Shown: one piece after another, positions 10,562 through 36,908 of the stretch | Layout: the number at the start of each line of letters is the position of its first letter | Position numbering within the stretch: position 1 is the first letter of the stretch | Assembly: GCA_963719515.1 (NCBI GenBank) | Contig: CAVRCJ010000010.1 | Coordinates: 736,001-800,000 of the forward strand | DNA length: 64,000 nt | Direction: 5' to 3' | DNA from: an uncultured cyanobacterium | GTDB taxonomy: Bacteria; Cyanobacteriota; Cyanobacteriia; CAKZMO01 | Notes under the pieces: model-generated | Database searches by the model: none | What the model was told of the DNA's origin: nothing | Seen by the model: only the letters and a program-made list of their open reading frames with translations | Translations under genes and position numbers: made by a program

Positions 10562-10628
10562 GTATCGCTTGGCACACCCTTGTTATAGCAAGCGCAGGTA
10601 TGCTAACTTCGACTTGTTATGACAAGTC
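10562..10628 (+). promoter_or_regulatory. NtcA-type box, -10 element and two palindromic operators
   Basis: GTA-N8-CAC 10562-10575; TATGCT 10599-10604 (23 nt spacer); CTTGTTATAGCAAG 10579-10592; CTTGTTATGACAAG 10613-10626. Confidence 0.7.
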
Positions 10629-10678
10629 GTCTCGAGCAGGTCTCGAGAGCCCAGTCCCCGCAGCCCCATCTCCAGATC

Positions 10679-11638
10679 ATGCCTATCTCTACCGCTTCCA
10701 CTGCGACTACCTCCGAAAGGCCTGCTCCTGAAGCGACCGTCTCTAGCCCCAATCCCCGGCAGCTGCTATCGCCCGAGGACTTGACCCCGCTCAACGCGCG
10801 CTCCAACTACCGGGGCGGCATTCGACTTTGCGGCCACCTCATGGTTCTCGCCCTCAGCGGCTACCTGTGGGGCCATGCGCCGCTTCGGCTAGCGCTACCG
10901 GCTCTCGCGGTCTACGGCGCTGGCCTGGCCCTGATGTTTTGCGCCATGCATGAATGCTGCCACCGCACTGCCTTTGCCAGCAACTCGCTTAACGATGGGG
11001 CCGCCTGGCTTGCAGGGCTGCTGTCGTTCTATAACAGCACCTTCTACCGGCGCTATCACAAGTGGCACCACCGCTACACCCAGATTCCGGGTAAAGACCC
11101 TGAGCTGGATGACCCCAAACCTGAATCCTGGCTCCAGTATCTCTGGCAGCTTTCCGGTATTCCCTGGTGGATAGGGAAGCTGCGCGGCCACAGCCGGGTG
11201 GCGCTGGGTCAGCTTGAGGGTTGCTATTTCCTTCCCGAAAGTGCCCATAGGGAAGTGATTGCCTCAACGCGGCTGCAGCTCGGCTGCTACGGAGCGGCGA
11301 TCGCCCTTTCAGCGGCGTTAGGACATCCGGGCTTCATCGTCACCTACTGGCTCCTGCCCCTGGCCATCGGTCAGCCCCTGCTGCGGTTCGTGCTGCTGGC
11401 CGAGCACACCGGCTGCACCACCATTGACAACCCCCTCACCAATACCCGCACCACCCTGACGCTCTGGCCCCTGCATTTTCTGATGTGGAATATGCCCTAC
11501 CACGCCGAGCACCACCTCTACCCTTCCATGCCCTTCCACACCCTGCCCCAGGCTCACGCCAAGCTGCGATCGCACTTTGCCCAGGTCGATCAGGGCTATG
11601 TGCATGTGAACCGCACCATCGCGGCGGCATTTGAGTAA
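10679..11638 (+). CDS. Membrane fatty-acid desaturase/hydroxylase superfamily protein (MocD-like)
   Basis: His boxes HECCH, HKWHH, HAEHH; ATG 10679 preferred because ATG 10619 lies inside the operator. Confidence 0.85.
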   Translation: MPISTASTATTSERPAPEATVSSPNPRQLLSPEDLTPLNARSNYRGGIRLCGHLMVLALSGYLWGHAPLRLALPALAVYGAGLALMFCAMHECCHRTAFASNSLNDGAAWLAGLLSFYNSTFYRRYHKWHHRYTQIPGKDPELDDPKPESWLQYLWQLSGIPWWIGKLRGHSRVALGQLEGCYFLPESAHREVIASTRLQLGCYGAAIALSAALGHPGFIVTYWLLPLAIGQPLLRFVLLAEHTGCTTIDNPLTNTRTTLTLWPLHFLMWNMPYHAEHHLYPSMPFHTLPQAHAKLRSHFAQVDQGYVHVNRTIAAAFE

Positions 11639-12649
11639 TGGCTTCCTGCTTCCTCCTCAAGAACTTTACCCTCCAGTGCGGCGTCACGCTGCCGGAGGCC
11701 GAGCTGGTATACGAAACCTACGGTGAGCTGAACGGCGATTGCTCCAACGCCGTGCTCTACCCCACCTCCTACGGCGCGCAGCACAGCGACATCGACTGGC
11801 TCATCCGTCCGGGCGGCATCTTGGACCCCACGCGGTGGTTTGTGATCATTCCCAACATGTTGGGCAACGGGCTGTCCTCCTCGCCCAGCAGCTGCCCGAC
11901 CCTAGCCCAGCCAGACACCTACACCACCCACCTCGACAACGTCACCGCCCAGGAGGCCCTGCTGCAGTCCCTCGGCATCGAGCGGCTGGCGCTGGTCTAT
12001 GGCTGGTCGATGGGGGCGCAGCAGGCCTACCATTGGGGAGCCCTGCATCCCGAGCGGGTAGAGCGCATCGCGGCCCTATGCGGCACCGCCAAAACCACCG
12101 ACCACAACCGCGTTTTCCTGTATAGCCTGCGGGCGGCGCTGACGGGAGACCCGGCCTGGAAAGGCGATCGCTTTGAGGGAGTGCCGGAGCAGGGCTTTCA
12201 CACTTTTGCCATGATCTACGCTAGCTGGGCGGCGTCTCAGTCCTACTATCGGGAGGCCCCTTATTTGCAGTTAGGGTATTCGATCTTTGGAGGACTACCT
12301 ACAGCGGGGCTGGGAGGCAGGCTACCGCAAGCGCGACCCCCACAATTTGCTGGCGATGATCGACACCTGGCTGCGCTGCGACCTGGGGAATAACCCGACT
12401 TACGAGGGGGACTACGCCAAGGCGCTGGGGTCGATTTCAGCAAGGACGCTGGTGATGCCCGCGACGACGGACCTTTACTTCACCCCGGAAGACTGCGAGG
12501 CGGAGGCAAAGCTAATGCCCAATGCCCAGTACCGCCCGATTCCGTCGATTTGGGGCCACCGGGCGGGCAACCCATATCAAAATCCTGAGGATGAAGCGTT
12601 TATTCGAGAGGCGATCGCGGCACTGCTGAGCGACAAGCCAAAGGCTTAG
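11638..12649 (+). CDS. MetX-like alpha/beta hydrolase split by a +1 frameshift near 12283
   Basis: LVYETYGELN, GWSMGAQQA nucleophile elbow; TDLYF and WGHRAG in a second frame (12287-12649). Confidence 0.8.
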
Positions 12650-13248
12650 CCGAAAATATCGGTGACCGTCAAGCCAAAGTTTGGAACGATATCTGAGGCG
12701 ATAGTCGCAGACTGGCCCTCTTGGGTCAACGCTTCGGCTCCGCCGTAAACCGTATCCTCGTATAGGCCGTTCTCCCAGCGGCATTGGGTGATCTGTCTCT
12801 TCTCAGGGTCCACAATCCAGTATTCGGCGATGCTCCGGGCCGCGTATTCGGTGCGCTTGTAGCGGTAGTCTCGATCCCGATTTTTCTGGCCTGGAGACAC
12901 AATCTCGATGACAAGGGCGGGCGGCGGCATGTCGTGGGTGAGGGTGGCCCGCTTGGTGCCCGCTAGGGCTGCTTTTGATTCTTCTGAATGAACCAGCAGG
13001 TCGGGAATGCGGCAGGTGGCGCGGCGTCCGGAGACTTCGATTTCGGTATCTTTGTAGGCCAATAAGGCGAGGGGAACGGACTTTGCCAGCTCAAACAGGA
13101 GACGCTTGGCGATGTCGTTGTTTTCGTCGGATTCGGGCGGCATGTCCACTAAGGTTCCATTCACCAGCTCACAGCGTCTGTCCGCGAAACCGTCAAGGGA
13201 CAGGTACTCGTCTAGGGTGAGGTATGGCTTTAGGACAGGCTGAACCAT
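12646..13248 (-). CDS. Uma2 (DUF820) family endonuclease-like protein
   Basis: ELVNG, RIPDLLV, LVIEIVSPG, KRTEYA, EYWIVDP. Confidence 0.92.
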   Translation of the reverse strand: MVQPVLKPYLTLDEYLSLDGFADRRCELVNGTLVDMPPESDENNDIAKRLLFELAKSVPLALLAYKDTEIEVSGRRATCRIPDLLVHSEESKAALAGTKRATLTHDMPPPALVIEIVSPGQKNRDRDYRYKRTEYAARSIAEYWIVDPEKRQITQCRWENGLYEDTVYGGAEALTQEGQSATIASDIVPNFGLTVTDIFG

Positions 13249-13342
13249 TGTCGGTCGTGGGTGAGACGTGTTTGTCTATGGTAGGCGTTTCTTTCCTCAG
13301 ACGCAGTACGCCAGCACTTAGAAAAAAGCTAATCGAAAAGGG

Positions 13343-13930
13343 CTAATCTTTGAATTGTTCTACTACTAGCGTGAAGCCCGGTAGCACTGCTTCGCCTGAT
13401 AATTCGGTGGGCAGCGATCGCACCTCTTTCACGCTCCCCTGGCGGTAAATTTCGACCTGCTGCTTTTGGGGATTGATCAGCCAGCCCAAGCGAACGCCGC
13501 TATCCATATATTCCTGCATTTTCTCCTGCAGTGTGGTCAGGCTGTCCGTAGGCGACCTCAGCTCGATAACAAAGTCTGGAGCAAGGGGAGGAAATTTTTG
13601 CCGCTGCTCTGGGGTGAGGCGCTGCCAGCGGGATAGCTCTACCCAAGCCACATCGGGGGAGCGATCGCCACCGTTGGGGAGCTTGAATAGCGTGGAAGAG
13701 CTGAAGACTTTGCCCAGCTTGGTGCGGCGGTTCCAAAGGCCTAAATCGATGCCCAATTCGAGTTCTTTGTTTCCGCTTTCGCCGCCAACGGGGGACATAA
13801 AGATTAGGGCTCCTTGGCGATCGCGCTCGATGGCGAGGTCGGGGTTATTGAGGCAGAGCTGGTAGAACTGCGCATCGCTGAGGGGAATGTGGGTGAGGTC
13901 GATTTTGAGGGGGAGGGTGAGAGGAGGCAT
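13343..13930 (-). CDS. Uma2 family endonuclease-like protein
   Basis: RSPDVAW, APDFVIELRSPTD, GVRLGWLINP. Confidence 0.92.
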   Translation of the reverse strand: MPPLTLPLKIDLTHIPLSDAQFYQLCLNNPDLAIERDRQGALIFMSPVGGESGNKELELGIDLGLWNRRTKLGKVFSSSTLFKLPNGGDRSPDVAWVELSRWQRLTPEQRQKFPPLAPDFVIELRSPTDSLTTLQEKMQEYMDSGVRLGWLINPQKQQVEIYRQGSVKEVRSLPTELSGEAVLPGFTLVVEQFKD

Positions 13931-14014
13931 ATGGATAAGCCTATCGCTAGTAAGGGCCTGCACTCGTTGTTATTGTGCGCTATGAACTGGTGAGACTATC
14001 GTCGCGAGGCTACA

Positions 14015-15202
14015 CTAAGGCAGATCATCTTCAAGTTGAATATCGCGCAGAGAATATCGTTTATCTGTAGACGTATTAGAGCTTTCTAAAACCTCTACGA
14101 CAACCTGACGGTTCACCATGGGCCCAATCACATCATCAATTTCGTCTTCAGCATCATAGATTCTTTCATTTTTACCGTTGATGCTTACTTCAATCCAGTC
14201 ACTGTCTAGCTGTAAGCCGCGAAGTATTCCCTTCAACTGAACAACTTTACGAGCAGAGACTTGCTGAAGAGCGATGTCAGGCGCACTTATGAAATTCACC
14301 TCAGGCTTTTTCAAGACTTGCTTAATCACTTTACGAGTATCTGTACTAAGAACGACTGGATAAGGATAAATGTCGTTGCTAGAGTTGATCTTGATTTGAT
14401 CAAATGATTTTCCTGAAGCAGGTGGTGCAAGCTCGCGAGTCAATTTTAGAAACGCTTTTCTATAATCTTCTTGAGGAACCACTTCAGCTAGTTTTCCCTC
14501 AGGATCTTGCGCAGTTGCTCTAACAATCTCAAGAAACTTCTTAGTAATTTGCTCTACACGCAATTCAACATTTTCCATGCCAGCAAAGCCAAGCTGCTTA
14601 AAGTCTTGAGGTTTGCGCACTCGGACTTCAAACTGGTAACTACCAGCAGGAGCCTGGAAGAGCCAAGGATCGCATTGGCTTTTAATGTTTTGGCTAGGGG
14701 CACCGCGAGTCCTGAGAGGCTGCTCTAAAAGAAGTTCCGTCGTCCGATAAAATATATTTTTGATTCGATCAACTTTTTCTAGAATAAGTTCTAATGGAGC
14801 CGCGCCGTATAAAATTTCTCCCCCGCTTACTGAAACTAAAACTTCACCCTCTATGAACTGAATTCCCGACTTGGCACGGGATTCTTCGTAACGAATCATC
14901 TGTAGCATATCTTCTAGCTCATCTATGGCAAAGGGTGCTAAGAGCTCAGTAGCCAACCACTTATGGGCAGCACGCCTTGCTTGAGCAAGCTCTTTAGCCT
15001 TGTAGTAGAGCGAAACGGCGCTAACGGCTGTAATACTTATAGTTCTGGTTTTGCTAGGAGCGAGACTTTCTATCGCATACGTCTCCGCTTCTGCAGCTAA
15101 GCGGTAAAAATCAGCAGCACGATCATGGTCATGACGTGCATTGAGCTCTTCTGCTTGACTCACATATTCTTCGCTCTGAGTATGATGTATTAACCAGCTC
15201 AT
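14015..15202 (-). CDS. Hypothetical protein, AT-rich; helical N-terminus, beta-rich C-terminus
   Basis: 395-aa ORF; start overlaps the upstream stop (ATGA); no HIP1 site seen. Confidence 0.75.
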   Translation of the reverse strand: MSWLIHHTQSEEYVSQAEELNARHDHDRAADFYRLAAEAETYAIESLAPSKTRTISITAVSAVSLYYKAKELAQARRAAHKWLATELLAPFAIDELEDMLQMIRYEESRAKSGIQFIEGEVLVSVSGGEILYGAAPLELILEKVDRIKNIFYRTTELLLEQPLRTRGAPSQNIKSQCDPWLFQAPAGSYQFEVRVRKPQDFKQLGFAGMENVELRVEQITKKFLEIVRATAQDPEGKLAEVVPQEDYRKAFLKLTRELAPPASGKSFDQIKINSSNDIYPYPVVLSTDTRKVIKQVLKKPEVNFISAPDIALQQVSARKVVQLKGILRGLQLDSDWIEVSINGKNERIYDAEDEIDDVIGPMVNRQVVVEVLESSNTSTDKRYSLRDIQLEDDLP

Positions 15203-15762
15203 GATTCTTCATCAACTGTATGAAGTAGTACCAACTGTACACTGAAGCCAACGATAGATACTAAGGCAGGTAGATTACTATTGCCTCTTCTAGCTTGATC
15301 GATCTTGACACGTAGTCGCTTCTTCACCTCTGCCTTATTTGAACTCGTTCCTGAAATTTCTAATCTAAAGCAATTTTCCAAGTCTTCTAAATCTCGGTTG
15401 CTCAAAGCAACGTAATAGTCTGCACCTGTGCCCTTTGACATACGCCGAATAGCAAAAATATTTCTTAGAAGCTCTATTGTTGCAATTGCAAAAGCGCAAG
15501 CTCCAGCTTCTGTCGCATCATCTTTATCCCATGCTGCTTTAATTCTATTATCCGTTGCCTTCCACTCTACCCTTGCTATAGATTCGTCATTATCATCTTC
15601 TAGAGTAAATTCTTTAGGTGAAAGATGATGGCGATCGAGACAAACTCTGGCAGCTTCAAGGTAGCTATTTGCAATAGACTGGGTGAGAGCCTGATGTCGC
15701 TCAGCCATATCCTCTATAGGTAGTAAAGGAAGATCACTATCAGTCAAAATTAACCTCAACAA
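15199..15762 (-). CDS. Hypothetical protein with possible PD-(D/E)xK-like nuclease fold
   Basis: DATEAGA…GTGADYYV…RLEISGT…KIDQ motif order; start codon uncertain. Confidence 0.65.
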   Translation of the reverse strand: MLRLILTDSDLPLLPIEDMAERHQALTQSIANSYLEAARVCLDRHHLSPKEFTLEDDNDESIARVEWKATDNRIKAAWDKDDATEAGACAFAIATIELLRNIFAIRRMSKGTGADYYVALSNRDLEDLENCFRLEISGTSSNKAEVKKRLRVKIDQARRGNSNLPALVSIVGFSVQLVLLHTVDEES

Positions 15763-16158
15763 ATAAGAGCGGTTTTATTCCTTTCTACTAAATCTACCCG
15801 CGTGGCGTAGTGAATGTCCAAAACAATACAACTACGTCTTGGTGCGATCGCCCCCTCACCAAAATTTCCCTTCACCACGGTTGCGATGGTCGAAGACCGG
15901 TCCTCAAGGACCATCGCCCCCCAACTCATGTATTCTCTCACTCAGCGCTCAAACACAGGCGCTCTCCAGAGGTGGTGAAGACACCTCCAGAGAGCTGAGC
16001 CCGCGCGAACTGGACATGGCAGAACGGCGGACCTACAGTTGAGTTTACAGCTCTCCTGGTGGCCCACCCCACTTTGCCTGCCTTCCCCGAAGGCGCACAG
16101 CAAGCGGGGTGTCTTGCTGTTTGGGCGCGTTATAAAACACCACCAGGAGAACAACTCA

Positions 16159-16452
16159 ATGACCCACGAAACGCCCCGCGATTGCCCCGGGGCCAACTCT
16201 GGCAGGCCCGACCCCAGCCAGGAGGCCTTACCCTACCCCTCCACGCCGCTGCCCCCCTCCAGCCAGCAGCCCACAGGCGGCTTTTATCGCCTGCGCATCA
16301 TCGCCACCGGGGTACCCCAAGCCGTGCAAAGCCACGTCAATGCCATGTACCACTTTGGCTACGCGCAGCCCTGGCAGTGGACCGACCCCGTCCCCACCGC
16401 CGACCCCGGCGAAGTGATGCGCGTCCTCACTAAGCAGGTACCTGCGCCTTAG
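16159..16452 (+). CDS. Small hypothetical protein (cyanobacterial-type family)
   Basis: AGGAG SD at 16145; IIATG…VQSHVNAMYHFGYA…WTDPVPT…GEVMRVLT. Confidence 0.7.
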   Translation: MTHETPRDCPGANSGRPDPSQEALPYPSTPLPPSSQQPTGGFYRLRIIATGVPQAVQSHVNAMYHFGYAQPWQWTDPVPTADPGEVMRVLTKQVPAP

Positions 16453-16484
16453 CAGGACGGGTGCATTCGCGCCCAGAGGCCACC

Positions 16485-16519
16485 AAGGCACCGGAGCTTC
16501 CCCATAGCTCCGGTGCCTT
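16485..16519. terminator. 14-bp perfect hairpin, likely terminator
   Basis: AAGGCACCGGAGCT-N7-AGCTCCGGTGCCTT, about 30 nt after the stop at 16452. Confidence 0.55.
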
Positions 16520-16571
16520 AGAATTTGGATAGAACCACTTGAATAGAAACACCGCGAGAGGCAGCGCAACC

Positions 16572-17177
16572 ATGGTCGCTCTTCAAGACTTGTCTGAATG
16601 GCTCAAAGCTGACGACCCCGAAGAGCGCCAGATCATCAGCGGCGTCAGCTGGGAAAGCTACGATACCCTGCTGAGCAGTGGCGATCGCCTCCCTCACCGC
16701 ATTGCCTACCTAGACGGAGTCCTAGAGCTTGTGTCCCCCAGTCGCCGCCACGAGCGCCGAAAAAGCATCATCGGGTCTTTGCTAGAAGACTACTTCAAAG
16801 AAAAGCGAATCCGCTACTTTCCCCTCGGCTCAGCGACGTTTCGCCAGCAGAACCAGCGCGGCGGCGTCGAACCTGACGAGTCTTACTGCTTGGGCACCGA
16901 AAAAGCGCTTCCTGACTTGGCGATTGAGGTCGTCGTCTCCAGCGGCGGCATCGACAAGCTAGAGGTTTATCGGCGGCTAGCGGTCAGCGAAGTCTGGTTT
17001 TTCAAGGGCGATCGCTTTAACGTCTATCGCCTAACCGCAGCAGGATACGAACTCACCGAGAGCAGCCCTCTACTGCCGGACCTAGATCTAGATCTGCTGG
17101 CTCAGTACGTCGTCGCCCCAGACCCGCTTGATGCCGCGATCGCCTTTCGAGACGCCATCCGGGAGGTACAACCATGA
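16572..17177 (+). CDS. Uma2 family endonuclease-like protein
   Basis: SWESY, YLDGVLE, EPDESY, PDLAIEVV, EVWF. Confidence 0.92.
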   Translation: MVALQDLSEWLKADDPEERQIISGVSWESYDTLLSSGDRLPHRIAYLDGVLELVSPSRRHERRKSIIGSLLEDYFKEKRIRYFPLGSATFRQQNQRGGVEPDESYCLGTEKALPDLAIEVVVSSGGIDKLEVYRRLAVSEVWFFKGDRFNVYRLTAAGYELTESSPLLPDLDLDLLAQYVVAPDPLDAAIAFRDAIREVQP

Positions 17178-17788
17178 TTGCACAGCCCAATAGCGCACCC
17201 GTTTCATTTGACGAATTCATTGCCTGGTATCCAGACGCTCCGGCGAACCGCTACGAACTTCGGCGAGGAGCCATCATCGAAATGCCAAAGCCCAAAGGGA
17301 AGCATTCAGAAATTGCGGGCTTTCTCATCAAGGTGCTAAACAACGCGATTGATCAAGCTTCATTGCCTTACGTCATTCCTCGTGAATGCATTATCAAAAT
17401 TTCTCCCGACACGGGCTACGAGCCCGATGTCACCGTAGTCGATCGCCCCGGCTTAGCCGACGAGCCCCGCTGGGACAGTTCATCCATCATCGAGCGCGGA
17501 GAAACGGTGAAGCTAATCGTTGAGGTTGTCTCCACCAACTGGCGCGACGACTACGCCCTCAAAATGTCCGACTACGAGAGCATTGGCGTACAGGAATACT
17601 GGATTGTCGACTACCTCGGCATCGGTGGGCGGCGCTATATCGGCTCCCCCAAACAGCCTACCGTGACGGTTTGTACGCTGGTGAACGGAGAATACGAACT
17701 GCAGCAGTTTCGCAGCGGCGATCGCCTCACTTCCCCCACGTTCCCAGCATTAACGTTGACCACAAACCAGATATCTGACCCAGGGTAG
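17174..17788 (+). CDS. Uma2 family endonuclease-like protein
   Basis: RYELRRG, YEPDV, IVEVVSTNWRDDY, EYWIVDY. Confidence 0.92.
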   Translation: MIAQPNSAPVSFDEFIAWYPDAPANRYELRRGAIIEMPKPKGKHSEIAGFLIKVLNNAIDQASLPYVIPRECIIKISPDTGYEPDVTVVDRPGLADEPRWDSSSIIERGETVKLIVEVVSTNWRDDYALKMSDYESIGVQEYWIVDYLGIGGRRYIGSPKQPTVTVCTLVNGEYELQQFRSGDRLTSPTFPALTLTTNQISDPG

Positions 17789-17802
17789 GATTCTCTAGAG
17801 CG

Positions 17803-19200: not shown

Positions 19201-19253
19201 TATGCAATTCTAGACAGACATACAGACATAGTGGTGATGCAGATCAGCATTGT

Positions 19254-28438: not shown

Positions 28439-28495
28439 AGTTGTTGTACCAAGAGTTTGCAACTCAACAGCGCTAGCGACTGTGCCAACAGCTAC
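28439..28495 (-). promoter_or_regulatory. Possible NtcA box and degenerate operator upstream of amt
   Basis: Minus-strand GTA-N8-CAC at 28482-28495; GTTGTTGTACCAAG 28440-28453 (3 mismatches to CTTGTTATAACAAG). Confidence 0.4.
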
Positions 28496-28613: not shown

Positions 28614-29117
28614 CTAGGCGGATAGGGCGTCCAGTAACGTCAGAACCTTATCGGCATCGCTACGGGGAAGGTGCACCTCCAAAGTGGGTCTGCCGCCGAC
28701 TGTATGCCGCCACAGGAGCACTGCAACGCCCTCTATTTGAGCCGGGGCCGCGCAGTTGGCGGGCAGATCAAGTCGGTGGGGCGGGCGCACCGTGGCGCAG
28801 TCCCGCAGCGTCGGGAATAGCTCATCCGGCAGGGCGATCGCCCGCATCCAGTCCAGCTGCTTCACCCAGACGCTAGCCTCTAGAGATTCCACAATCTGCG
28901 CCAGCGGCCCCGAATAGCCCAGGCGAAAATTGCGATCGCACAGCCGCAGCACTGAGCAAGGTGCGCCCTGAAGCGTGGTCTCCAAAGACTGGAACGGGGC
29001 CAGCTGGTCCACCGCCTCGCCAAACAGCGCTCGCGCTGCGGAAAGTCCGTCTCGCCCCGCCATGTCCCAAGAAGCCATGCTGACTGCCCTTACTGAACTG
29101 ACTGCCTCTGTTGTCAT
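28614..29117 (-). CDS. Small protein resembling sarcosine oxidase gamma / GcvT N-terminal fold
   Basis: WDMAGRDG…CSVLRLCDRNFRL…AQIEGVAVLLWR; directly follows the GcvT-domain gene. Confidence 0.5.
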   Translation of the reverse strand: MTTEAVSSVRAVSMASWDMAGRDGLSAARALFGEAVDQLAPFQSLETTLQGAPCSVLRLCDRNFRLGYSGPLAQIVESLEASVWVKQLDWMRAIALPDELFPTLRDCATVRPPHRLDLPANCAAPAQIEGVAVLLWRHTVGGRPTLEVHLPRSDADKVLTLLDALSA

Positions 29118-29122
29118 CGCCT

Positions 29123-31030
29123 TTACCCCCTAGCCCGGCTTTTAGTGGGGTCATAGGCCGCCAGCGGCCCCACGGTGGCCGTCGCGCGCCGCTTCAGCCC
29201 GTCCAGCAGGCCCACTTCGACTACAGTTCCGGCTTCGGCATACTCCGGCATTACCTGCGCCAGAGCGATGCTGCGTCCCAGACCGGGAGAGAAAGTGGCG
29301 CTGGTCACCTGCCCGACACGCCAGCGCTCCCCGGCAGCATAAACCGGCTGGCCGTGAGCGGCGACCTCGTTGCCCGCTAGAACCAGGCCCACCCCGACCC
29401 TGGGCGGATGAAGCCGAATTGCCTCTAGCGCAGCCTTACCCACAAAGTCAGGCTTCTTTAGGGCTACCGTCCAGCCAATTCCGGCCTGATACGGAGAGGT
29501 GAGGTCGTCAAACTCGGCCCCCGAGGCCAGCAGCCCCGCCTCAATCCGCGCCCGGTCTAAGGCCTGCATTCCCAAGGGCAATAGCCCAAAGGGCTGCCCC
29601 GCCGCCATCAGCCTGTCCCACAGCGCCGGGCCATACTTAGGATGGACAAACAGCTCGTAGCCCAGCTCCCCGGTATAGCCCGTGCGCGATACCAGCACCG
29701 GCAAACCGGCGTTGGCCTCTCGAGACCGAGCTAGCCCGCAGGGAAAGCTTATCGCCGCCGAAGTGAACCGGAAGTAGCGCAGCTCATCCAGTTGGGTGAC
29801 GGTGCTGTCGCTGTAAAACCGAAGTAGCGGCCCCAGAATCTCTCGGGAGGCGGGGCCTTGAAGGGCTAAGTTATGGATGCGATCGCTGGCCACTAGAATT
29901 GTGGCCTCCCAGCCGTAGCGCTGAGCCAGCTGCTCTAGCCAGCTCCCGTCGGTGTCGCAGTTGCCCACATAGCGGTAGTGGGTGGGGCCGAAGCAAAACA
30001 CCAGCCCATCGTCAATGATGCCGCCGTGGGGGCTAAGCAGGCAGCCGTAGGCCGACTGGCCGGGCACCAGCTTTTCGACGTTGCGGGAGAAGGCGTACTG
30101 GAGCAGCGCTAAAGCGTCGGGCCCCAGCACCTCGAACTTCCGCAGGGCGGAAAGGTCCATCAGCGCCGCTCGCTGCCGCAGCGCCCAGTACTCGGCCTGG
30201 TCGCCCTGGTGGGCGAAGCTGTTGGGCACCCAGAAGCCGTTATATTCCGTCAGGTCGTCCGTGAGCTGGCGAATAGAGGGGGTGAAGGCGCTGTCTTGGG
30301 TGAGCCGCAGCGGTAGGTCGGCAGCGGCGCGTCGTCCGATGGCTCGCTCAAAAGTTTGGCTAGCGGCGTAGATTCGCACGTGGATGGGGGTGGGGTGCCA
30401 GCCGTTGGCGGGGTCGATGTCGTCAGGGCAGGCGGAGCTGGCGCACAGCAGATCTTGATGGGCTTGAAGTAGCACAAAGTCGCCGGGGCGGGACCAAGAT
30501 TCGTCTGCAGTGACGGCACCTTGACAGTCAACCTCGGTGTTAAAGAAGAAGTTGATGGCGGCCCAGCCGGGCCGGGGCGCGATGCCGTGGGGAGCCAGCA
30601 CTCGGTTGAAGTTATCGCTGCAGCTAGGGTGGCCGGGGTAGCCCGCGTCTTCGTAGTAGCGAGACGTGCAGGCCAGCAGGAAACTATCGTGGCGATCGCA
30701 GGTAGATTGAATCACCTCCACCAGGGGCGCGAAAGTCTTAGAGAAATACTTGCCCTGCAGCCCCGCCGCAGGGTTGGCAAGGCCGTTCAAAGTGCGGGTG
30801 ACGGTGCCGTCGATTTCTTCGCGGTAGTCTTCGCCGCTGAAGGCCAGGAAGTCGGAGCATTGGGAGCCCTCTACGTCGATAATCTGAACGTATTGTCCGG
30901 CGGTTACCTCGTAGGCGATCGCGGTTCCGGGGGCGATGCGGTATTCGGCGACGACGGTTCCCAGCCGCGGCGGAATGTCGTTAGGGTGGCGGATATTTGC
31001 CGGGGCGGACGGGGCCGATGTAGAAACCAT
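29123..31030 (-). CDS. DUF1989 + GcvT-domain protein (TMAO demethylase Tdm-like)
   Basis: QIIDVEGSQCSDF, HDSFLLACT…YYEDAGYPGH-SCSDNFN, SSACPDDIDPANGW; MDLSALRKFEV, SRTGYTGELGYE. Confidence 0.85.
   Translation of the reverse strand: MVSTSAPSAPANIRHPNDIPPRLGTVVAEYRIAPGTAIAYEVTAGQYVQIIDVEGSQCSDFLAFSGEDYREEIDGTVTRTLNGLANPAAGLQGKYFSKTFAPLVEVIQSTCDRHDSFLLACTSRYYEDAGYPGHPSCSDNFNRVLAPHGIAPRPGWAAINFFFNTEVDCQGAVTADESWSRPGDFVLLQAHQDLLCASSACPDDIDPANGWHPTPIHVRIYAASQTFERAIGRRAAADLPLRLTQDSAFTPSIRQLTDDLTEYNGFWVPNSFAHQGDQAEYWALRQRAALMDLSALRKFEVLGPDALALLQYAFSRNVEKLVPGQSAYGCLLSPHGGIIDDGLVFCFGPTHYRYVGNCDTDGSWLEQLAQRYGWEATILVASDRIHNLALQGPASREILGPLLRFYSDSTVTQLDELRYFRFTSAAISFPCGLARSREANAGLPVLVSRTGYTGELGYELFVHPKYGPALWDRLMAAGQPFGLLPLGMQALDRARIEAGLLASGAEFDDLTSPYQAGIGWTVALKKPDFVGKAALEAIRLHPPRVGVGLVLAGNEVAAHGQPVYAAGERWRVGQVTSATFSPGLGRSIALAQVMPEYAEAGTVVEVGLLDGLKRRATATVGPLAAYDPTKSRARG
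29712..29750 (+). mobile_element. 39-bp in-frame insertion splitting a HIP1 site (SDR5-like)
   Basis: GCG|TTGGCCTCTCGAGACCGAGCTAGCCCGCAGGGAAAGCTT|ATCGC. Confidence 0.75.
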
Positions 31031-31158
31031 AGGATGGGTCCGGAAAACGTCAATTTCATGAGCAGATCGATGGCGTCATCGTATCGGTCGGTGCGGCGCA
31101 AAAGTTCAGTGGCATCCGTTGTATCAACCATTGATGATTGGCTTCGCAACCCAACGAA

Positions 31159-33087
31159 TCAATGACAGGCCCCATGTTTACCCGGCGACGGCGGCACATC
31201 ATTCGCCGGATTCTCATCAAAGAAATTCAGCGGCTTCAGCATAAACCCAATGGTCGACACCGGCATCACCGGCCAGTCTTCCGCCCTAGGCGAATGGCTG
31301 TGGGCAAAGGTGTACCACACCACCAGGTCCGTGTCTTCAACAGAGCGATCGCCCTGGGTCCACTGGGGCAGCCCTGCCTCGCCGGGGTGCTGGTTGGGGT
31401 AAGGGCCAGCGGGAAAAGATTCATCGGGGTGGTAGGGGGTCACCCAAAGATGCTTCGACATATAGCGCGCCCGCTTGCTCACCCCGGCATCGGGATGGGC
31501 CAGGGGCAAGGTGTTCTCCCCCGGCATCAGCTTGTAGGCCGTAGGGTAGCCCATGGCGTTGGTCTTGTCGGGGTTGATGATTTTCCAGTAGCGCCCCTTC
31601 CAGGGGTCGATGGTGCGCTGGGCGGCTAGCTCGGTGGGCAGCAGGGTGGACTGGGCGTAAAAGGCGTTGCCGTAGGGGTTGTTCTCCTCATCTTCCGGCA
31701 CAATGTCTACCTCGTAGACGGAGTTGTGCGGCCCGTCAACGGCCATATCGAGCCGCACGTTGAAGATGTGCTGGTGGATGGGGGCGTTGAGCTGCGGGGC
31801 CACCAGGGTACCGTATTTAGGCACCTCTCCCGGCATGGCGGCGGCGGTGCTGACGATGCCGGTGAGCTTCACCTGATACTCAATGGTGCCGTCTTGGTAG
31901 AAGTACCAATAGAAGGCATATTCGTAGTTGCCCACCGTGGCGACGAAGGAAACCACCAAGCGGCGCGATCGCCTCACCTCAGTTTCCTCCGTGCGCCAGT
32001 CCACATGCTTCCAGAGAATGCCGAAGTCCTCCTCATGCAGGCAGACGGCGTTTTCGATGCTGGCTACGTCGCCTTTGGAGGTGGCCAAAAAGGCGTCGAA
32101 GTAGTGAATTTCGCCCAGACAGTCGCAGCCTAGCGTTAAGGAGTTGGCCAGCGAGCCGACGCCGTACTCCCCCACGTCAAAGGCATTTTTGCGGTAGTGG
32201 TGAGACCGGGGGTCGCCGTAGGGCACGGTCATTTCAGCCAGAGAAGCCCGGTAAATTACGGGACGCTCCTCCCCTTGGTCATTGTAGGTGATGGTATAGA
32301 GCACCAGCCCTTCTCTGGGGGTAAAGGCGACTCTCATCTTCCACTTTTGCCAGCTGATTTCGTGGCCGTTGACCGTAAAGCTCGGCCCTTCCGGCTGCAC
32401 AATTTCTAGGGGCTTGATGTCCTGGCGGTAGTTCTTGACGTATTCGGTAGAGTAGTTGCCGTCTTTGGGCGGCAGGGGCACCACGCCGTGGTCCTCCACG
32501 CGCACCAGCTCCATTTTGTTGAGGTCCACTACCGGAATCACCCCTTCAATGGGACGGGCGTAGCCGTTGTCGGTGGGGTTAGCCCTCACCCAGCACAGGG
32601 CCCGCGAGAGCCTTACGCCTTTCTCGTCTGCGATGCCGTAGTTGCCCGCCGACCAGGAGTCTACCATCACTAGACTGGGGTCAGTAATGCCGCGCTTAGC
32701 GATCGCCGCCTGAAAGTCGGGGTCTGCCTTAACGGCCTCTTCGCACGCCAAGAATTCATCCAGCATGATGGGGGGCTGCACGCCCGGAATGTGCTCCCAG
32801 CGGGTGACGGTGCGGCTGGCTAGGTCTATATCGGCTTCGTAGGTTTTGGCCGTGCTGCTGTCCAGGAGAATGAGGAAAGCTGACCGCTTCACGGCATCAC
32901 CCGGCGTAAAGGCGAGTACAGCGTCTTTAGCGGGTTCTTTGAGGGTGACGGTGGCGAAGCGGAAGCTGCCGCCGAGGGGTTTGGCCTCGCGGAGAGCGGC
33001 GACGGCGGTTTCGATTTCCGCTGGGGTTAGGGGATCTAGAGGGTGGGCGATCGTTTGGGTTTGGACTCGTTCTTGAGCAATAGTCAT
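31159..33087 (-). CDS. Copper-containing primary amine oxidase (TPQ)
   Basis: HPLDPLT, AFDVGEYG, TVGNYEY (TPQ Tyr), HQH, HSPRAEDWPVMP. Confidence 0.96.
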   Translation of the reverse strand: MTIAQERVQTQTIAHPLDPLTPAEIETAVAALREAKPLGGSFRFATVTLKEPAKDAVLAFTPGDAVKRSAFLILLDSSTAKTYEADIDLASRTVTRWEHIPGVQPPIMLDEFLACEEAVKADPDFQAAIAKRGITDPSLVMVDSWSAGNYGIADEKGVRLSRALCWVRANPTDNGYARPIEGVIPVVDLNKMELVRVEDHGVVPLPPKDGNYSTEYVKNYRQDIKPLEIVQPEGPSFTVNGHEISWQKWKMRVAFTPREGLVLYTITYNDQGEERPVIYRASLAEMTVPYGDPRSHHYRKNAFDVGEYGVGSLANSLTLGCDCLGEIHYFDAFLATSKGDVASIENAVCLHEEDFGILWKHVDWRTEETEVRRSRRLVVSFVATVGNYEYAFYWYFYQDGTIEYQVKLTGIVSTAAAMPGEVPKYGTLVAPQLNAPIHQHIFNVRLDMAVDGPHNSVYEVDIVPEDEENNPYGNAFYAQSTLLPTELAAQRTIDPWKGRYWKIINPDKTNAMGYPTAYKLMPGENTLPLAHPDAGVSKRARYMSKHLWVTPYHPDESFPAGPYPNQHPGEAGLPQWTQGDRSVEDTDLVVWYTFAHSHSPRAEDWPVMPVSTIGFMLKPLNFFDENPANDVPPSPGKHGACH

Positions 33088-33130
33088 GGGTAGAGTTCTT
33101 TAGACTTCTTGGGCAGTGGTTAAAGGGCTG

Positions 33131-33520
33131 AAGGCCCCCTCCGCCGCTAGTTCTGGGGGGCTAGGCTATGCGTTTGAAGCGATCGCTGTCATTGATTTTG
33201 AGAAGATCTAGCGTCACTAGCTCCCCCAAGAATTGGGGGCTGGGGGGCCTTTTCAAGGGGTAGAACATTCAGAGAATCACAAGGCATAAATTTTAGTGAC
33301 CAGTAACGCACCGACTGGGGTTGATGGAACCTGGCTGCTTGGGGGCCTATCCCCCAAACCCCCTTGGCTGGGGGACGAGTTGCCTCCCTCAGCGGCCTCC
33401 TACAAACGGCGGTGTCTGTGAGACGGTTTAAATGTAGGGTGGGTTGATGAGGGAAGCCCACCCTTTCTCGCAGGCGCATCGGTTTCAGTAGGGTGGATTA
33501 ACGTAAGGGAGCCTACCCTT
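33131..33520. repeat. Cluster of intergenic hairpin repeats (three families, including copy 3 of the double-hairpin repeat)
   Basis: CCCCCAAGAATTGGGGG ~33223; inverted copy of the 23128 repeat at ~33339-33400; GTAGGGTGG…CCC palindromes at ~33433-33520. Confidence 0.6.
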
Positions 33521-33539
33521 TATTGCGATCGCGTCACGC

Positions 33540-34973
33540 TTACGTCACGCTTACGGCCAGCGGCTTAGCTGCCTCAACCGTCAATTCCTCATCACCGAGC
33601 TCAGACAACAGCTGCTCCGCCAGCTTACGCTTGCCCTCAGCATCCAGCTTCTTCACCTCGTTGTGCAGCACCCGCTCATTCACCGACTGATTCCAGTAGT
33701 CTAGGACATCAAACCCCAGCAGCGCCGACTTGCCCACAAACTGCCGCAGCACTTCGTTTGTCGGCCCCATTACCCAGCCTGCTTTGCCGTCCCGCAGGTA
33801 GCGCTCCACCTCCATATCTTTCTTAAAGCCCGAGCCGCCGCAGGCGTGGAGCATCTTGTCGCAGACGTGGGCCACGTTCTTGGCCGCCGCAAACTTGATC
33901 TGCCAATACCAATGCAGGTAGGCCGAGCGCGGTAGGGCCGTCAAATCATCATGAATGGTCCAGTCACAGTCTTTTGTGAGCTGGTCCATCAGCTGCCCCA
34001 TCGAAAAGGTGTACATGCGGCAGGCGCTGGTGTCTATTACCCCTTCGCCAAAGTAGTCCTGAATAGTGGGGTAGTCGGCCACCCGCATCCCTACGTCAGC
34101 GTGTTTTTTGCGGGTGACGTGCTTTTTGGCGATATCCATCGCGCCTAGAGCAATGCCGTTCCAGCAGGCAGAGGAGCACAGCAGGAAAAACGGATCGACA
34201 ATCTCATCGTTGGAGGCGACGCCGTCGCCCTTGGTGCCCACCATCCGCTGCGTGGGAATATCTACCCCATCCACCAGCAGCGTCCCCGACTGGTTGCCCC
34301 GCAGGCCCATGGCGTCCCACTTGTGGGGCTCGGCCTGCACCTCGTCGCGATAGATCAAAAAGCAGGACAAATCAGAAAAGTCCCCGGCAAAGTCGGGGCT
34401 GCTAGTCTGCACAATATACCAATCGGCAAAACCCGCCGAGGTGGTCCAGGAGGCCCGCTTCGAGACGCGCCAGCCGTCGTCAGTAGCTTCGGCTTTGGAG
34501 GAAACGGGGTACCAAAAGTGGGAGCCGGTTTCGGGGTCGGAGTAGGACAGGGTGCCAATGAAGACGTCTTGGTCTAGCCGCCTCAGCAGCTCCTGAATCT
34601 CTGGGTTCTGATGCGCCCGAAACAGGGCGGCGGCGACGGCCCCGAGGTGCATGGTGTAACACATGGCCGTGCTGGGGCAGCCGTAGCGGGCGATAGTTTC
34701 TACGACCATGGCGGCACAAACGTGGTTTTCCCCCAGACCGCCCCACGTCTTAGGAACAAGCAGCCCCAGCAGCCCTAAGGACGCCAGCGCCTCAAAGTTT
34801 TCGCGCGGGTAGATGAGGTTGCGGTCTGAGGCGATCGCATTGGGCCGCAGTACGGTGGCGCATAGGTCAATCAGCTGCTGTTGGAGCTGCTGCTGCTCGG
34901 GGGTGAGCAACCACTGGGGGTCAAAGTCGTCGCTGAGGCCGGTGAAAGGTTCGCCGTTCCAGGTTTTTGCCAT
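33540..34973 (-). CDS. Acyl-CoA dehydrogenase family flavoprotein
   Basis: SYSDPETGSH, WDAMGLRGNQS, HACGGSGF, ERYLRDG. Confidence 0.9.
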   Translation of the reverse strand: MAKTWNGEPFTGLSDDFDPQWLLTPEQQQLQQQLIDLCATVLRPNAIASDRNLIYPRENFEALASLGLLGLLVPKTWGGLGENHVCAAMVVETIARYGCPSTAMCYTMHLGAVAAALFRAHQNPEIQELLRRLDQDVFIGTLSYSDPETGSHFWYPVSSKAEATDDGWRVSKRASWTTSAGFADWYIVQTSSPDFAGDFSDLSCFLIYRDEVQAEPHKWDAMGLRGNQSGTLLVDGVDIPTQRMVGTKGDGVASNDEIVDPFFLLCSSACWNGIALGAMDIAKKHVTRKKHADVGMRVADYPTIQDYFGEGVIDTSACRMYTFSMGQLMDQLTKDCDWTIHDDLTALPRSAYLHWYWQIKFAAAKNVAHVCDKMLHACGGSGFKKDMEVERYLRDGKAGWVMGPTNEVLRQFVGKSALLGFDVLDYWNQSVNERVLHNEVKKLDAEGKRKLAEQLLSELGDEELTVEAAKPLAVSVT

Positions 34974-35012
34974 GGGTTAAATCATTAATTGGGGTGGAAA
35001 TATAGGGGCAAA

Positions 35013-35909
35013 TCAGGCGGCGATCGCCGATTTTGCCAGCGGGTCAGCGCAGTAGTCGGCTAGGAAAGGCGTCCGGTAGCCGTCCTCCTGCCACAGGATC
35101 GGGAAAAAGCTCTCATCCATCGCCGTGTCCCCCACCCGCTTGTAGCGGCCATAGATGTAGCCCGCCGGGTTCGTCGGGTGAAATCGCGCCACCGACGGCA
35201 GCGTATGCAGGCCAATGCTGTGGAAGCAACCCTCAGTGCGCGTTGTTGGACATAGCCCGTGCCAGGTCCGTCCGTGGTGGAAGGCGCAGCCCCCCGCCGG
35301 AACATCTACCACCACCACCTCAGGTTCCGCGACCCCGGCCTGCTCAGCCGCTTGCAGCATCGCCCAGCGGTAGTCTTTAGTGGGCGCGTGGAACTCTCCC
35401 GCCACGTCGATTAGCGGCCATTTGTGGGATCCCTTCGCATAAATCAGCGTCCCGTCTGCCGCCGTTGCGTTGTCCAGCGCTACCCAGCAGGTCATCATCG
35501 CGGCGGGGTCGAGGTAGTCCACATAGGCCCCGTCCTGATGCATGGCGATCGCCTTCGCTTGGGGGGGCTTTACCCAAAGGCTGTCCTGCCCGATGCGCGC
35601 GCCGCTCCACCCTGCAAGGGCAGCCGTCAAGCGGCCAATTTCGGAGGAGAGCACCAGGCTGGCCACCGTGCGATCGCTCTTCCAGCCGTTGCAGATTTCT
35701 CGGGTGACGTCGGGGAGGCTCAGGCCAGGCCGCCAGTGCCACTCGTCGGGGTAAACGCCGGTCTCGAAGTCGCCATGAAACATGGGTCCCAGGCGGCTAG
35801 CGAGCTGCTGGGCAAACTCTGAAGGTAGGAAATTCTCTACGATCAAAAATCCGTCAGTTTGAAACTGGTGGATTTGTTCTCTAGATAGGGTTATGGGCTG
35901 GTAGTCCAT
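35013..35909 (-). CDS. Phytanoyl-CoA dioxygenase (PhyH) family Fe/2OG oxygenase
   Basis: FQTDGFL, MHQD, TCWVALD, GSHKW, HGRTWHG. Confidence 0.92.
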   Translation of the reverse strand: MDYQPITLSREQIHQFQTDGFLIVENFLPSEFAQQLASRLGPMFHGDFETGVYPDEWHWRPGLSLPDVTREICNGWKSDRTVASLVLSSEIGRLTAALAGWSGARIGQDSLWVKPPQAKAIAMHQDGAYVDYLDPAAMMTCWVALDNATAADGTLIYAKGSHKWPLIDVAGEFHAPTKDYRWAMLQAAEQAGVAEPEVVVVDVPAGGCAFHHGRTWHGLCPTTRTEGCFHSIGLHTLPSVARFHPTNPAGYIYGRYKRVGDTAMDESFFPILWQEDGYRTPFLADYCADPLAKSAIAA

Positions 35910-35990
35910 GCAGAAAACGCCTTACCGAAAGGGAGTTTGATAGGGGCTGGCTAGATAGACCAGTTGACAAACTCAGCTTGTCCATCTCTA

Positions 35991-36037
35991 CTTGTCATAA
36001 TAAGTTCGCGCCTCAAACAAACAGTAGCCCCGACTAC
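35991..36037 (-). promoter_or_regulatory. NtcA box, -10 element and overlapping operator
   Basis: GTA-GCCCCGAC-TAC 36024-36037; minus-strand TATTAT at 35997-36002 (21 nt spacer); CTTGTCATAATAAG 35991-36004. Confidence 0.7.
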
Positions 36038-36076
36038 CGTTGTAAAACTCCGTCATAAAACTGAACCTGGCTTACC

Positions 36077-36809
36077 ATGACCCAATCTTCCACCATCCCT
36101 GCCCTGCCGCTCGTTCAATCCGGCCACCTCCATATCGCCGCCAGCGATTTCGACGCGCGCCCCATGAGCTACGTCTCTGACAGCACTCGCAGCGGTTATG
36201 AGCCTGAGCTAGCCCGCATTCTGTGCGATCGCCTCGGACTCGCCCCCACCTGGCACAATTTGCCGATGGAGGAGTTTTACACCTGCTTTGAGACAGGCCG
36301 CTACGACGCGGTGTGGTTTAACCAGGCCGTTACCCCGGAACGCCAGCAGAAAGGTCGCGTTTACCCAGCCTTACGGCCTGTTTGATGAGGCCGTATTGGT
36401 TCAGCAGGGCAGCGGCATCGCCTCCCCAGAAGATCTGCGCGGCAAGCGGGTGGGCGGACTAGCCGACAGCACCAATATCGCTCTGGTGGAGGGCTTTCCA
36501 GAGGCGATCGCCGTCCCGTACCCCGGCAGCGATAAGGTGCTGCCCGAGATGCTGGAAGCGCTGCGCAAGGGGGAGATTGACGCCCTGATTGACGACGAGC
36601 TGGTGCTGGTGGTGGCTGCGGAGGAAGACCCAACCCTACAGCTGGCGTTCACGCTGCCGACCCGAGTACCCTTCGCTATTGCGGTTTCCCCCGATAAGCC
36701 AGAACTGCTGGCAGCGCTAAATGGGGCGATCGCTGAGATGCTGGCAGACGGTGCCCTGCAGCAGCTGTGGAGCAAGTGGATTCCCTGGAAACCATTTCCG
36801 CTTGAATAG
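36077..36809 (+). CDS. Family 3 (amino acid-type) solute-binding protein split by a +1 frameshift at ~36352
   Basis: SGYEPELAR…VTPERQQK then VAFTQPY…DLRGKRVG…KGEIDA in the next frame; no signal peptide seen. Confidence 0.75.
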
Positions 36810-36875
36810 TAGTCCTATCTGTAGGGTGGGCATTGCCTACCCTACGCAGCTCGAATAGAGTATTTGGTCCATAAG

Positions 36876-36908
36876 GTAATCCGCGATACAAACTCGTCAT
36901 AACGAGTT
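36876..36908 (+). promoter_or_regulatory. NtcA box immediately followed by palindromic operator
   Basis: GTA-ATCCGCGA-TAC 36876-36889; AACTCGTCATAACGAGTT 36891-36908. Confidence 0.75.

Follow-up and report, generated by a model that had tools for sequence, protein, structure and literature searches.

The stretch of DNA analysed here, hereafter the window, comprises 64,000 nucleotides from the genome of an uncultured cyanobacterium (assembly GCA_963719515.1, contig CAVRCJ010000010.1, positions 736,001 to 800,000; coordinates below are those of the window). It encodes a GntR-family regulator (gntR) and carries four strong copies of a 14-bp palindrome in three intergenic regions: between gntR and a divergent gene for a desaturase-like protein, between divergent genes for a PhyH-family dioxygenase (PhyH) and an SBP_bac_3 family protein (SBP), and upstream of a gamma-glutamyl-amine-synthetase-like (GS-like) gene. 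Together with the NtcA-type boxes found beside them, these sites point to a regulon for methylated or other amines that would be activated by NtcA and repressed by the GntR protein, a reading to which we give a probability of about 0.7. The existence of the sites, their uniqueness, their conservation, their phyletic linkage and the conserved promoter skeleton were computed directly. The genome holding the window (5,280,051 bp) is designated G000; other G codes denote related genomes, and L codes denote loci.

A palindrome associated with the gntR gene

The regulator gene and the sites attributed to its product are as follows.

9819-10541, minus strand: gntR, HutC-subfamily regulator of 240 aa, with GntR and UTRA domain matches
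10579-10592, no strand: predicted operator O1, CTTGTTATAGCAAG, gntR-proximal, occupying the spacer between box and -10; kept in 5/5 aligned sequences, with an invariant left half
10613-10626, no strand: predicted operator O2, CTTGTTATGACAAG, 34 bp from O1, over the predicted start of the desaturase-like transcript; almost invariant in the alignment
35991-36004, no strand: predicted operator O3, CTTGTCATAATAAG, in the PhyH/SBP divergent region; invariant in 4/4 aligned genomes
36893-36906, no strand: predicted operator O4, CTCGTCATAACGAG, filling the spacer between box and -10, a layout repeated in G003, G014 and G032
28440-28453: weak operator-like element, GTTGTTGTACCAAG, with three mismatches to the cross-genome consensus

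A sequence check placed all the palindromes and boxes of the initial annotation at the coordinates it had given. The degenerate pattern CTYGTYATRRYRAG, fitted post hoc to the four strong palindromes, gave six strand-matches at four places in the window, compared with a mean of 0.04 in 100 dinucleotide-preserving shuffles of the window, none of which reached six. Across the whole genome the same pattern matched those four places only (10579, 10613, 35991 and 36893), all of them in the three intergenic regions and within 26 kb. Since the pattern was defined post hoc, recurrence at orthologous places in other genomes is the stronger evidence. When the cross-genome consensus CTTGTYATRACAAG was used instead, 0-1 mismatch gave four places in the genome (three in the window and one inside a 525-aa open reading frame, ORF), two mismatches gave 22 places, 36893 among them, and three mismatches gave 205, of which 60 fell in crudely defined intergenic DNA. 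A fifth palindrome, described initially as weak, does exist at 28440, and with its three mismatches it is one of those 205 places and therefore not significant alone. Seven of the 12 other crude-intergenic sites with two mismatches in G000 were inspected and judged unrelated to the regulon by their neighbour genes (a response regulator, Lrp/SBP_bac_5, phasin/FKBP, MFS, MbnP/TnpB, SbtA/TnpB and asd/trigger factor).

Comparative analyses revealed that the palindrome travels with gntR. The wider locus scan covered 28 cyanobacterial orthologous loci (50-78% identity, 3/28 repeating stretches already taken from related genomes), with record titles including Elainellaceae, Phormidesmidales, Leptolyngbyaceae, Waterburya, Pleurocapsa, Xenococcaceae, Spirulina, Kaiparowitsia, Gloeobacterales and others; cultured carriers are represented by the records titled Leptolyngbya sp. 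AN02str and Pleurocapsa sp. CCALA 161. A site with at most two mismatches lies about 200 bp or less upstream of gntR in 24 of these loci, and the divergent desaturase-like gene, in most cases with a MetX-like gene after it, is present in 22. The cross-genome operator consensus is a perfect palindrome, CTTGTTATAACAAG, and the sites are usually paired, 33-39 bp apart, across orders. In G003, G004, G014 and G009 (61-78% identity) the pair is exactly 34 bp apart and directly upstream of gntR, as in G000. Among 41 related genomes, 17 encode a GntR homologue at E<=1e-30; the exact motif was present in 10 of these 17 and in none of the 24 others (one-sided Fisher p ~2e-5, the 41 genomes being kin and not independent), and a reversed-pattern control matched four genomes. 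In intergenic alignments of all three regions, where mean column identity is 42-66%, the operators stand out as invariant islands.

The initial annotation had attributed the palindrome to the adjacent regulator, and its recurrence upstream of gntR in orthologous promoters, its phyletic distribution and its GT-N4-AC spacing all support that attribution. On this comparative evidence, the 14-bp palindrome is very probably the operator of the GntR encoded at 9819-10541. Motif matches within ORFs or beside transposases (G004 C590 and C718, G014 C453, G028 C333) were set aside as chance occurrences. Two further sites were observed in relatives. One match in G014 (C427) lies between a methyltransferase gene and cupredoxin/amine-oxidase genes. 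In G009 (L044, G009:C34), an operator-like CTTGCCATAATAAG with two mismatches occurs at position 9873, 96 nt upstream of ureA (ureABC) and 4 kb from the gntR divergon, so that urease may be part of the predicted regulon in that genome.

Identity of the regulator

Profile searches identified an N-terminal GntR winged helix-turn-helix (PF00392, residues 11-70, 68.8 bits against a cut-off of 27) and a C-terminal UTRA effector domain of chorismate-lyase fold (PF07702, residues 94-230, 69.4 bits against 23.8), and the protein was assigned to the HutC subfamily because of the latter. Its best relative of solved structure is YvoA/NagR (2wv0, E 2.2e-24), the similarity extending over the full length. 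It falls below the NCBIfam equivalog cut-offs for PhnF (TIGR02325, 108 vs 156.8), HutC (TIGR02018, 104.6 vs 220) and TreR (TIGR02404, 89.2 vs 211.95), and is thus none of these named regulators. The predicted regulon is a new one for the HutC subfamily, with a regulator that by score is neither HutC, PhnF, TreR nor NagR.

YvoA/NagR, DasR (dre sites), HutC, PhnF and TreR all share the combination of GntR winged helix and UTRA domain. The available text of a comparative study of the HutC subfamily gives the consensus NyGTMTAKACNy, in which GT and AC are 4 nt apart, and describes double sites, kept at a constant distance, in divergons that include the regulator gene (PMC4494728). The window system has the same features, namely a palindromic GT-N4-AC operator and paired sites in a divergon; in the form ttGT-TATA-ACaa the spacing is kept, with TATA or CATA at the centre where the published consensus has MTAK. 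It differs in its targets, which are amine-catabolic genes in cyanobacteria, and the same study, as far as its available text goes, covered just one cyanobacterial HutC-type factor (PMC4494728). Another GntR-family protein, PlmA, has been tied to the cyanobacterial nitrogen network (PMC5083789, available part) and is described as a separate, cyanobacteria-restricted subfamily (PMC4494728), whereas the UTRA domain of the window protein places it in the HutC subfamily. The regulator is encoded in a lineage where, to our knowledge, HutC-type factors are nearly unstudied.

NtcA-type boxes and the promoter skeleton

The boxes and candidate promoter elements that accompany the palindromes are listed below.

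10562-10575, plus strand: NtcA-like box GTATCGCTTGGCAC, GTA-N8-CAC, one letter off strict, 3 nt upstream of O1
10599-10604, plus strand: candidate -10 TATGCT, predicted for the desaturase-like operon and located 23 nt beyond the box; hand-called
10605-10600, minus strand: candidate -10 TAGCAT, which would serve gntR, between O1 and O2 and overlapping TATGCT; hand-called
35964-35992, plus strand: candidate SBP promoter TTGACA-N17-TCTACT, the second hexamer overlapping O3
36002-35997, minus strand: candidate -10 TATTAT for the PhyH operon, within O3
36024-36037, no strand: strict NtcA box GTAGCCCCGACTAC, followed on the minus strand by TATTAT at a distance of 21 nt
36876-36889, plus strand: NtcA box GTAATCCGCGATAC, strict in 3/3 aligned genomes and also in G032
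36912-36917, plus strand: candidate -10 TTTACT, 22 nt after the box, invariant in the alignment of G000, G003 and G014
28440-28495, minus strand: upstream region of the Amt-family gene, with box GTAGCTGTTGGCAC (28495-28482), N22, CAAACT and the weak operator-like CTTGGTACAACAAC (28453-28440)
22269-22338, no strand: predicted bidirectional NtcA-type promoter without operator, with the strict box GTAGCGTCAGCTAC at 22297-22310

NtcA itself is encoded in G000 (G000:C3:167089-167664; TIGR03697, 387.7 bits against a cut-off of 244.95). In the window, GTA-N8-TAC occurs 12 times, compared with 4.65 +/- 1.92 in the shuffles (maximum 9). It is strict at 36876, 36024 and 22297 and one letter off at 10562 and 28482, the latter (28482-28495, GTGCCAACAGCTAC) reading GTA-N8-CAC on the minus strand. 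The adjacency of box and palindrome is as first noticed: they are separated by 3 nt at both 10562/10579 and 36876/36893, and by 19 nt at 35991/36024. Box offsets around 42 operator sites are concentrated at exactly +/-17, and 14 loose and five strict boxes lie within +/-45 nt, where about 3.1 and 1.1 are expected by our own arithmetic from box densities. Candidate -10 hexamers, all hand-called, follow the boxes at 21-23 nt (TATTAT for PhyH, TATGCT for the desaturase-like gene and TTTACT for the GS-like gene).

The GS-like promoter has the clearest organization. It reads GTAATCCGCGATAC-AAA-operator-TTCGC-TTTACT, with box, operator and TTTACT invariant in G003 and G014, and genes of the GS3c type are preceded by a strict box, AAA, the operator, N5 and TTTACT in 4/4 genomes (G000, G003, G014 and G032). 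The same composite of box, 3 nt and operator is found in G011 ahead of a copper amine oxidase gene and in G032 ahead of the Amt-family orthologue, the latter with a strict box, AAA and an operator carrying one mismatch.

In the PhyH/SBP divergon, the operator is present in 7/7 genomes examined (G000, G003, G004, G014, G007, G011 and G032). Its box, which is strict in G000, G003 and G004 and one letter off in the other four, invariably flanks the operator on the SBP side at a distance of 17-19 nt. TTGACA, TCTACT and their 17-nt spacing are retained in 4/4 aligned genomes; this SBP promoter went uncalled in a consensus scan because TCTACT lacks A at position 2. TTGACA at 35964 was also considered as an ordinary sigma-70 promoter of the whole region and was retained for the SBP direction only. 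At the orthologous operator in G003 (L043, G003:C43, 10886-10924), a 16-nt tandem duplication (TTCTACTTGTCATAAT x2) was observed that keeps TTGACA-N17-TCTACT on one side and the 19-nt gap between operator and box on the other.

At the gntR/desaturase-like divergon, GT-N10-AC lies at a 3-nt gap from O1 in 11 of 23 anchored orthologous promoters, and two more have a strict box at a 2-nt gap; a TAN3T hexamer follows O1 by 4-6 nt in 19 of the 23 rows. In G004 (L053, G004:C697), a 56-nt insertion with internal inverted repeats, which may be a small mobile element, separates a box remnant from the proximal operator.

Promoters without the operator are informative about the box. Those of the GS3a type have a strict box, N22 and TTTACT in 7/7 cases, and the arrangement strict box, AAA, N14, N5, TTTACTGG is common to G000, G004, G009, G011, L088 and G032. 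The N14 segment is the operator in G009, L088 and G032, and is unrelated sequence in G000, G004 and G011; in L065 the operator lies 2 nt upstream of the box and not in the spacer. Box and TTTACT are thus kept with or without an operator, as expected of promoter elements in their own right that are conserved independently, and retention of the box in operator-free spacers argues against its being an accessory GntR half-site. In G000, the strict box at 22297 is flanked at 22 nt by TTTAAT on its right, facing GATase and GS-like genes, and by TTTACT on its left, facing genes for a GS-like protein, an iron-containing alcohol dehydrogenase (Fe-ADH) and an aldehyde dehydrogenase (ALDH); in this spacer the GntR operator looks to have been lost or never acquired.

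The available text of PMC11850224 gives the NtcA box consensus and its class II position at -41.5. NtcA-activated class II promoters lack a -35 and have their -10 some 22 nt beyond the GTA-N8-TAC box; in the window the candidate hexamers lie at comparable distances. The window promoters depart from this model in that the 22-nt spacer holds a predicted repressor operator, phased 3 nt from the box. The -10 rule for NtcA-activated promoters is TAN3T, in place of which the GS-like promoters conserve TTTACT. The boxes had been interpreted from the outset as promoter parts at an NtcA-type distance, and the fact that box and TTTACT 22 nt downstream persist whether or not an operator lies between them sustains this interpretation. 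That NtcA acts at these promoters is, on these sequence comparisons, quite likely. One additional strict box, GTAAGGGAGCCTAC, was observed at 33503-33516, in the 60-nt gap between the genes for an acyl-CoA-dehydrogenase-like flavoprotein and a 96-aa ORF; a -10 placed 22 nt downstream of it would hit the start codon of the ORF.

Points against the proposed regulation and alternative explanations

Several observations weigh against the proposed regulon. A scan of the 16 kb between the operons in G000 found no operator, the site at 28440 is weak and by itself not above chance in the mismatch scan of the genome, and the operator-like site of amt is weak in G004 as well as in G000. The operator centre, TATA or CATA, is unlike the MTAK given for the subfamily in the available text of PMC4494728. 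The box at 10562 is not kept in the closest relatives (ATA..CAC in G003, the 56-nt insertion in G004, and G014 and G009). In none of the three regions did a consensus scan call a sigma-70-type promoter; this fits activator-dependent promoters, yet leaves every -10 hand-called. TTTACT and TCTACT have no A at position 2, where one is usual. Over the genome as a whole, intergenic GTA-N8-TAC shows no enrichment of TAN3T at 21-23 nt downstream (21/332, with control patterns at 16/268, 15/294, 17/212 and 16/522), so that most such boxes are presumably chance occurrences, and among six other box-plus-hexamer matches with a downstream ORF, one precedes an obvious nitrogen gene (cytosine-deaminase family). 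The related genomes are kin, and their counts therefore overstate independence. Lastly, two genes of the regulon, SBP and MetX-like, are frameshifted in the assembly.

Some of these points would also suit a system in which the palindromes are GntR operators and the boxes are not NtcA sites at all, being chance sequences, targets of another CRP/FNR-family factor or GntR half-sites, so that the genes would respond to an inducer only. The low genome-wide signal is compatible with this: intergenic GTA-N8-TAC has a density of 0.168 per kb, compared with 0.107-0.148 for spacing and order controls, with no TAN3T enrichment downstream, and five further CRP/FNR-like matches are present in G000. For the GntR family, the available part of PMC4494728 reports additional, weaker boxes at 7-12 nt from the centre of the site; the conserved '..AC aaa' beside O1 resembles the operator half-site ACAA, and the 10562 box is not retained in the closest relatives. 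However, a half-site would not account for the strict GTA-N8-TAC found exactly 22 nt from TTTACT in the operator-free GS3a-type spacers of G000, G004 and G011, nor for the conservation of the 5' GTA as well, 22-24 nt from the operator centre. As box offsets are clustered far above chance and the regulated genes have nitrogen-scavenging functions, we consider an inducer-only response unlikely.

The palindrome might also be bound by a different transcription factor, its position next to gntR being a coincidence of gene order. G000 gave seven GntR-like candidates at first look, and some relatives have two or three homologues; however, one GntR-like match only remains in G000 at E<=1e-30, the site has the HutC-type GT-N4-AC form, and it lies directly upstream of the gntR family in 24/28 loci across several orders and is missing in 24/24 related genomes without a GntR homologue, which makes another binding protein very improbable. 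Hardly any weight can be given to non-regulatory palindromes, whether chance AT-rich sequences, remnants of small repeats or transcript hairpins. The post hoc pattern and a shuffle expectation of about three occurrences, obtained by our own scaling to the genome, speak for chance. On the other hand, the four occurrences are confined to three promoters in a 26-kb stretch, at orthologous positions that are conserved while their flanks diverge; the arms are 5 bp only, the sites lie upstream of genes, and a terminator scan of the three intergenic regions found none. Uniqueness, alignments, gntR-locus and phyletic results already contradict such an origin. Joint control by NtcA and GntR thus remains the reading pursued below.

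Gene content of the predicted regulon

The genes associated with the operators and boxes are the following.

10679-11638, plus strand: membrane di-iron protein of the FA_desaturase family (PF00487, 139.6 bits)
11638-12649, plus strand: MetX-like alpha/beta hydrolase (PRK07581, 297 bits, profile positions 9-223 of 339 only)
28614-35909, minus strand: cluster of six same-strand genes, in the same order in G003
35013-35909, minus strand: PhyH-family dioxygenase
33540-34973, minus strand: acyl-CoA-dehydrogenase-like flavoprotein
between the flavoprotein and copper amine oxidase genes, minus strand: 96-aa ORF
31159-33087, minus strand: copper primary-amine oxidase
29123-31030, minus strand: DUF1989+GcvT protein resembling trimethylamine N-oxide (TMAO) demethylase (Tdm)
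last of the six-gene cluster, minus strand: 167-aa ORF
36077-36809, plus strand: SBP_bac_3 family protein, split by a frameshift into ORFs 36077-36385 and 36288-36809
36951-38462, plus strand: GS-like (gamma-glutamyl-amine-synthetase-like) gene
38543-39961, plus strand: FmdA/AmdA-family amidase
26700-28151, minus strand: Amt-family transporter, whose upstream region is 28440-28495

In G003, a genome of the same genus, the order is contiguous: MetX-like, desaturase-like, two sites, gntR, the cluster from PhyH to the small ORF, a site, SBP, a site and the GS-like gene. It is thus through rearrangement and inserted genes that the operons lie 25 kb apart in the window, and the earlier proposal that the distant operons belong to one regulon is strengthened by this adjacency with the same sites and by the conserved operator islands of the alignments. 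The broader proposal that the scattered genes form a single pathway is borne out in part only, since the 16 kb between the operons carry no operator in G000.

The likely start of the desaturase-like protein is ATG 10679; a longer ORF from 10619 begins within O2. The protein has a weak match to the GntB arginine hydroxylase model (54.8 bits), and a search of a protein cluster atlas for a clue to its substrate returned 'fatty acid desaturase' clusters only. The MetX-like gene is frameshifted near 12285: ORF 12287-12649 matches residues 223-337 of the G009 protein, which is intact at 337 aa, with 81% identity.

From strand and order, the six genes at 28614-35909 are probably co-transcribed. The 29123-31030 product falls under the Tdm equivalog cut-off (NF053776, 814 bits vs 1100, profile positions 152-762 of 763), hence Tdm-like. 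In G003, the copper amine oxidase gene (L043, 6167-8094) gave overlapping tblastn pieces covering residues 1-495 and 479-642, which suggests a frameshift there. The SBP gene has a +1 frameshift in the G000 assembly (overlap 36288-36385) and is uninterrupted in G003. In metagenome contigs of low depth, obtained from three runs, one base is missing at 36347 or 36349; its absence would join the two ORFs, so that the frameshift is either strain-specific or an assembly error. Given the two frameshifts, part of the system may be decaying in G000.

Operator-carrying genes in relatives extend this list. They include a copper amine oxidase (G011), a sarcosine-oxidase-alpha-like protein of 960 aa (G007 and G011), a Rieske oxygenase and BCCT transporter pair (G024) and the Amt-family orthologue of G032. 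The set comprising GS-like/Fe-ADH/ALDH and GATase/GS-like genes carries the GntR operator in L065, G009, L088 and G032. Taken together, these genes suggest that methylated, quaternary or other amines are broken down to supply nitrogen.

The GS-like/Fe-ADH/ALDH and GATase/GS-like set, at 17803-24661 in the window, parallels the GlnA4/EpuRI route of ethanolamine and polyamine gamma-glutamylation in Streptomyces coelicolor. The available text of PMC6529630 describes a cluster there with genes for a GS-like gamma-glutamyl-amine synthetase, for a dehydrogenase and an aldehyde dehydrogenase, and for a hydrolase of glutamine amidotransferase type, together with a transporter gene and a divergent repressor gene; this cluster is induced by amine and repressed by ammonium. 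The cyanobacterial set belongs to another phylum, and in G000 it has an NtcA-type box and no operator.

Neighbouring genes

The segment between the operons, from 12.6 to 28.2 kb, contains four Uma2 genes, ALDH, Fe-ADH, two GS-like genes, GATase and the Amt-family transporter. The four Uma2-family genes (PF05685) are clustered at 12646-17788, a segment missing from the compact G003 locus. No type-I glutamine synthetase was found above the TIGR00653 cut-off in G000, a genome rated 100% complete; the matches to this model are the three GS-like genes of the window and a GlnN-like ORF of 735 aa on G000:C5, around 173011-173622. A TnpB/OrfB_IS605-like gene occupies 41005-42306. Canonical gcvT and gcvH genes lie at 46392-48031, 8 kb downstream of the predicted regulon, with no operator nearby.

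Predicted mechanism and significance

From these results we infer the binding by GntR and NtcA, the repression, the inducer and the substrate. In the proposed mechanism, GntR dimers on O1-O4 would block RNA polymerase, either because the operator fills the spacer between NtcA and -10 (box, 3 nt, operator, 5-6 nt, -10) or because it covers the -10 and the start, and O1 and O2 would also autoregulate gntR. Transcripts are predicted to begin at about 10611 (plus strand), 35990 (minus), 35999 (plus) and 36924 (plus). Under nitrogen limitation, NtcA with 2-oxoglutarate would activate these -35-less promoters from a box located 21-23 nt before the -10, and a pathway intermediate bound to the UTRA domain would presumably free the DNA of GntR. 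Transcription would then need both active NtcA and the release of GntR, which amounts to an AND gate for cells that are nitrogen-starved and have the substrate at hand.

Catabolic control by an activator plus a repressor is familiar from hut under HutC and nitrogen or carbon activators in Pseudomonas, and from lac under CAP and LacI. The predicted cyanobacterial switch follows the same logic, in which a global nutritional activator and the release of a pathway-specific repressor are both required. It differs in that NtcA would replace NtrC/CbrB or CAP, and in that the operator is nested as an exchangeable 14-bp cassette whose presence varies between orthologous promoters. Literature searches, in which subscription journals were not covered, yielded no description of the regulator, of its operator or of a GntR/NtcA composite promoter, and a fixed nesting of an operator in NtcA promoters with gain and loss between lineages was likewise not found in the literature searched.

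More tentatively, and at somewhat less than even odds for the claim as a whole, these elements may represent an undescribed promoter class distributed across several cyanobacterial orders, combined with cassette switching and an unrecognised use of amines. Its defining feature would be an exchangeable 14-bp HutC-type operator cassette placed in the 22-bp spacer between NtcA box and -10, phased exactly 3 bp, through the gain or loss of which lineages might toggle operons between NtcA-only and NtcA-plus-GntR control. Methylated or quaternary amines could in this way be used as a nitrogen source via TMAO-demethylase-like, GS-like, copper amine oxidase, BCCT/Rieske and sarcosine-oxidase-like genes, and the regulon core might consist of a conserved membrane di-iron hydroxylase and the MetX-like enzyme.

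NtcA is usually described alone or with co-activators, and a nested repressor operator would, if true, illustrate how a global nitrogen signal and substrate sensing are joined at a single promoter. Such a promoter would also provide a compact AND-gate part for cyanobacterial engineering. For the organisms themselves, several poorly annotated genes (desaturase-like, MetX-like, PhyH, flavoprotein, Tdm-like and GS-like) would share a function in organic amine scavenging, within a predicted regulon that varies traceably between lineages.

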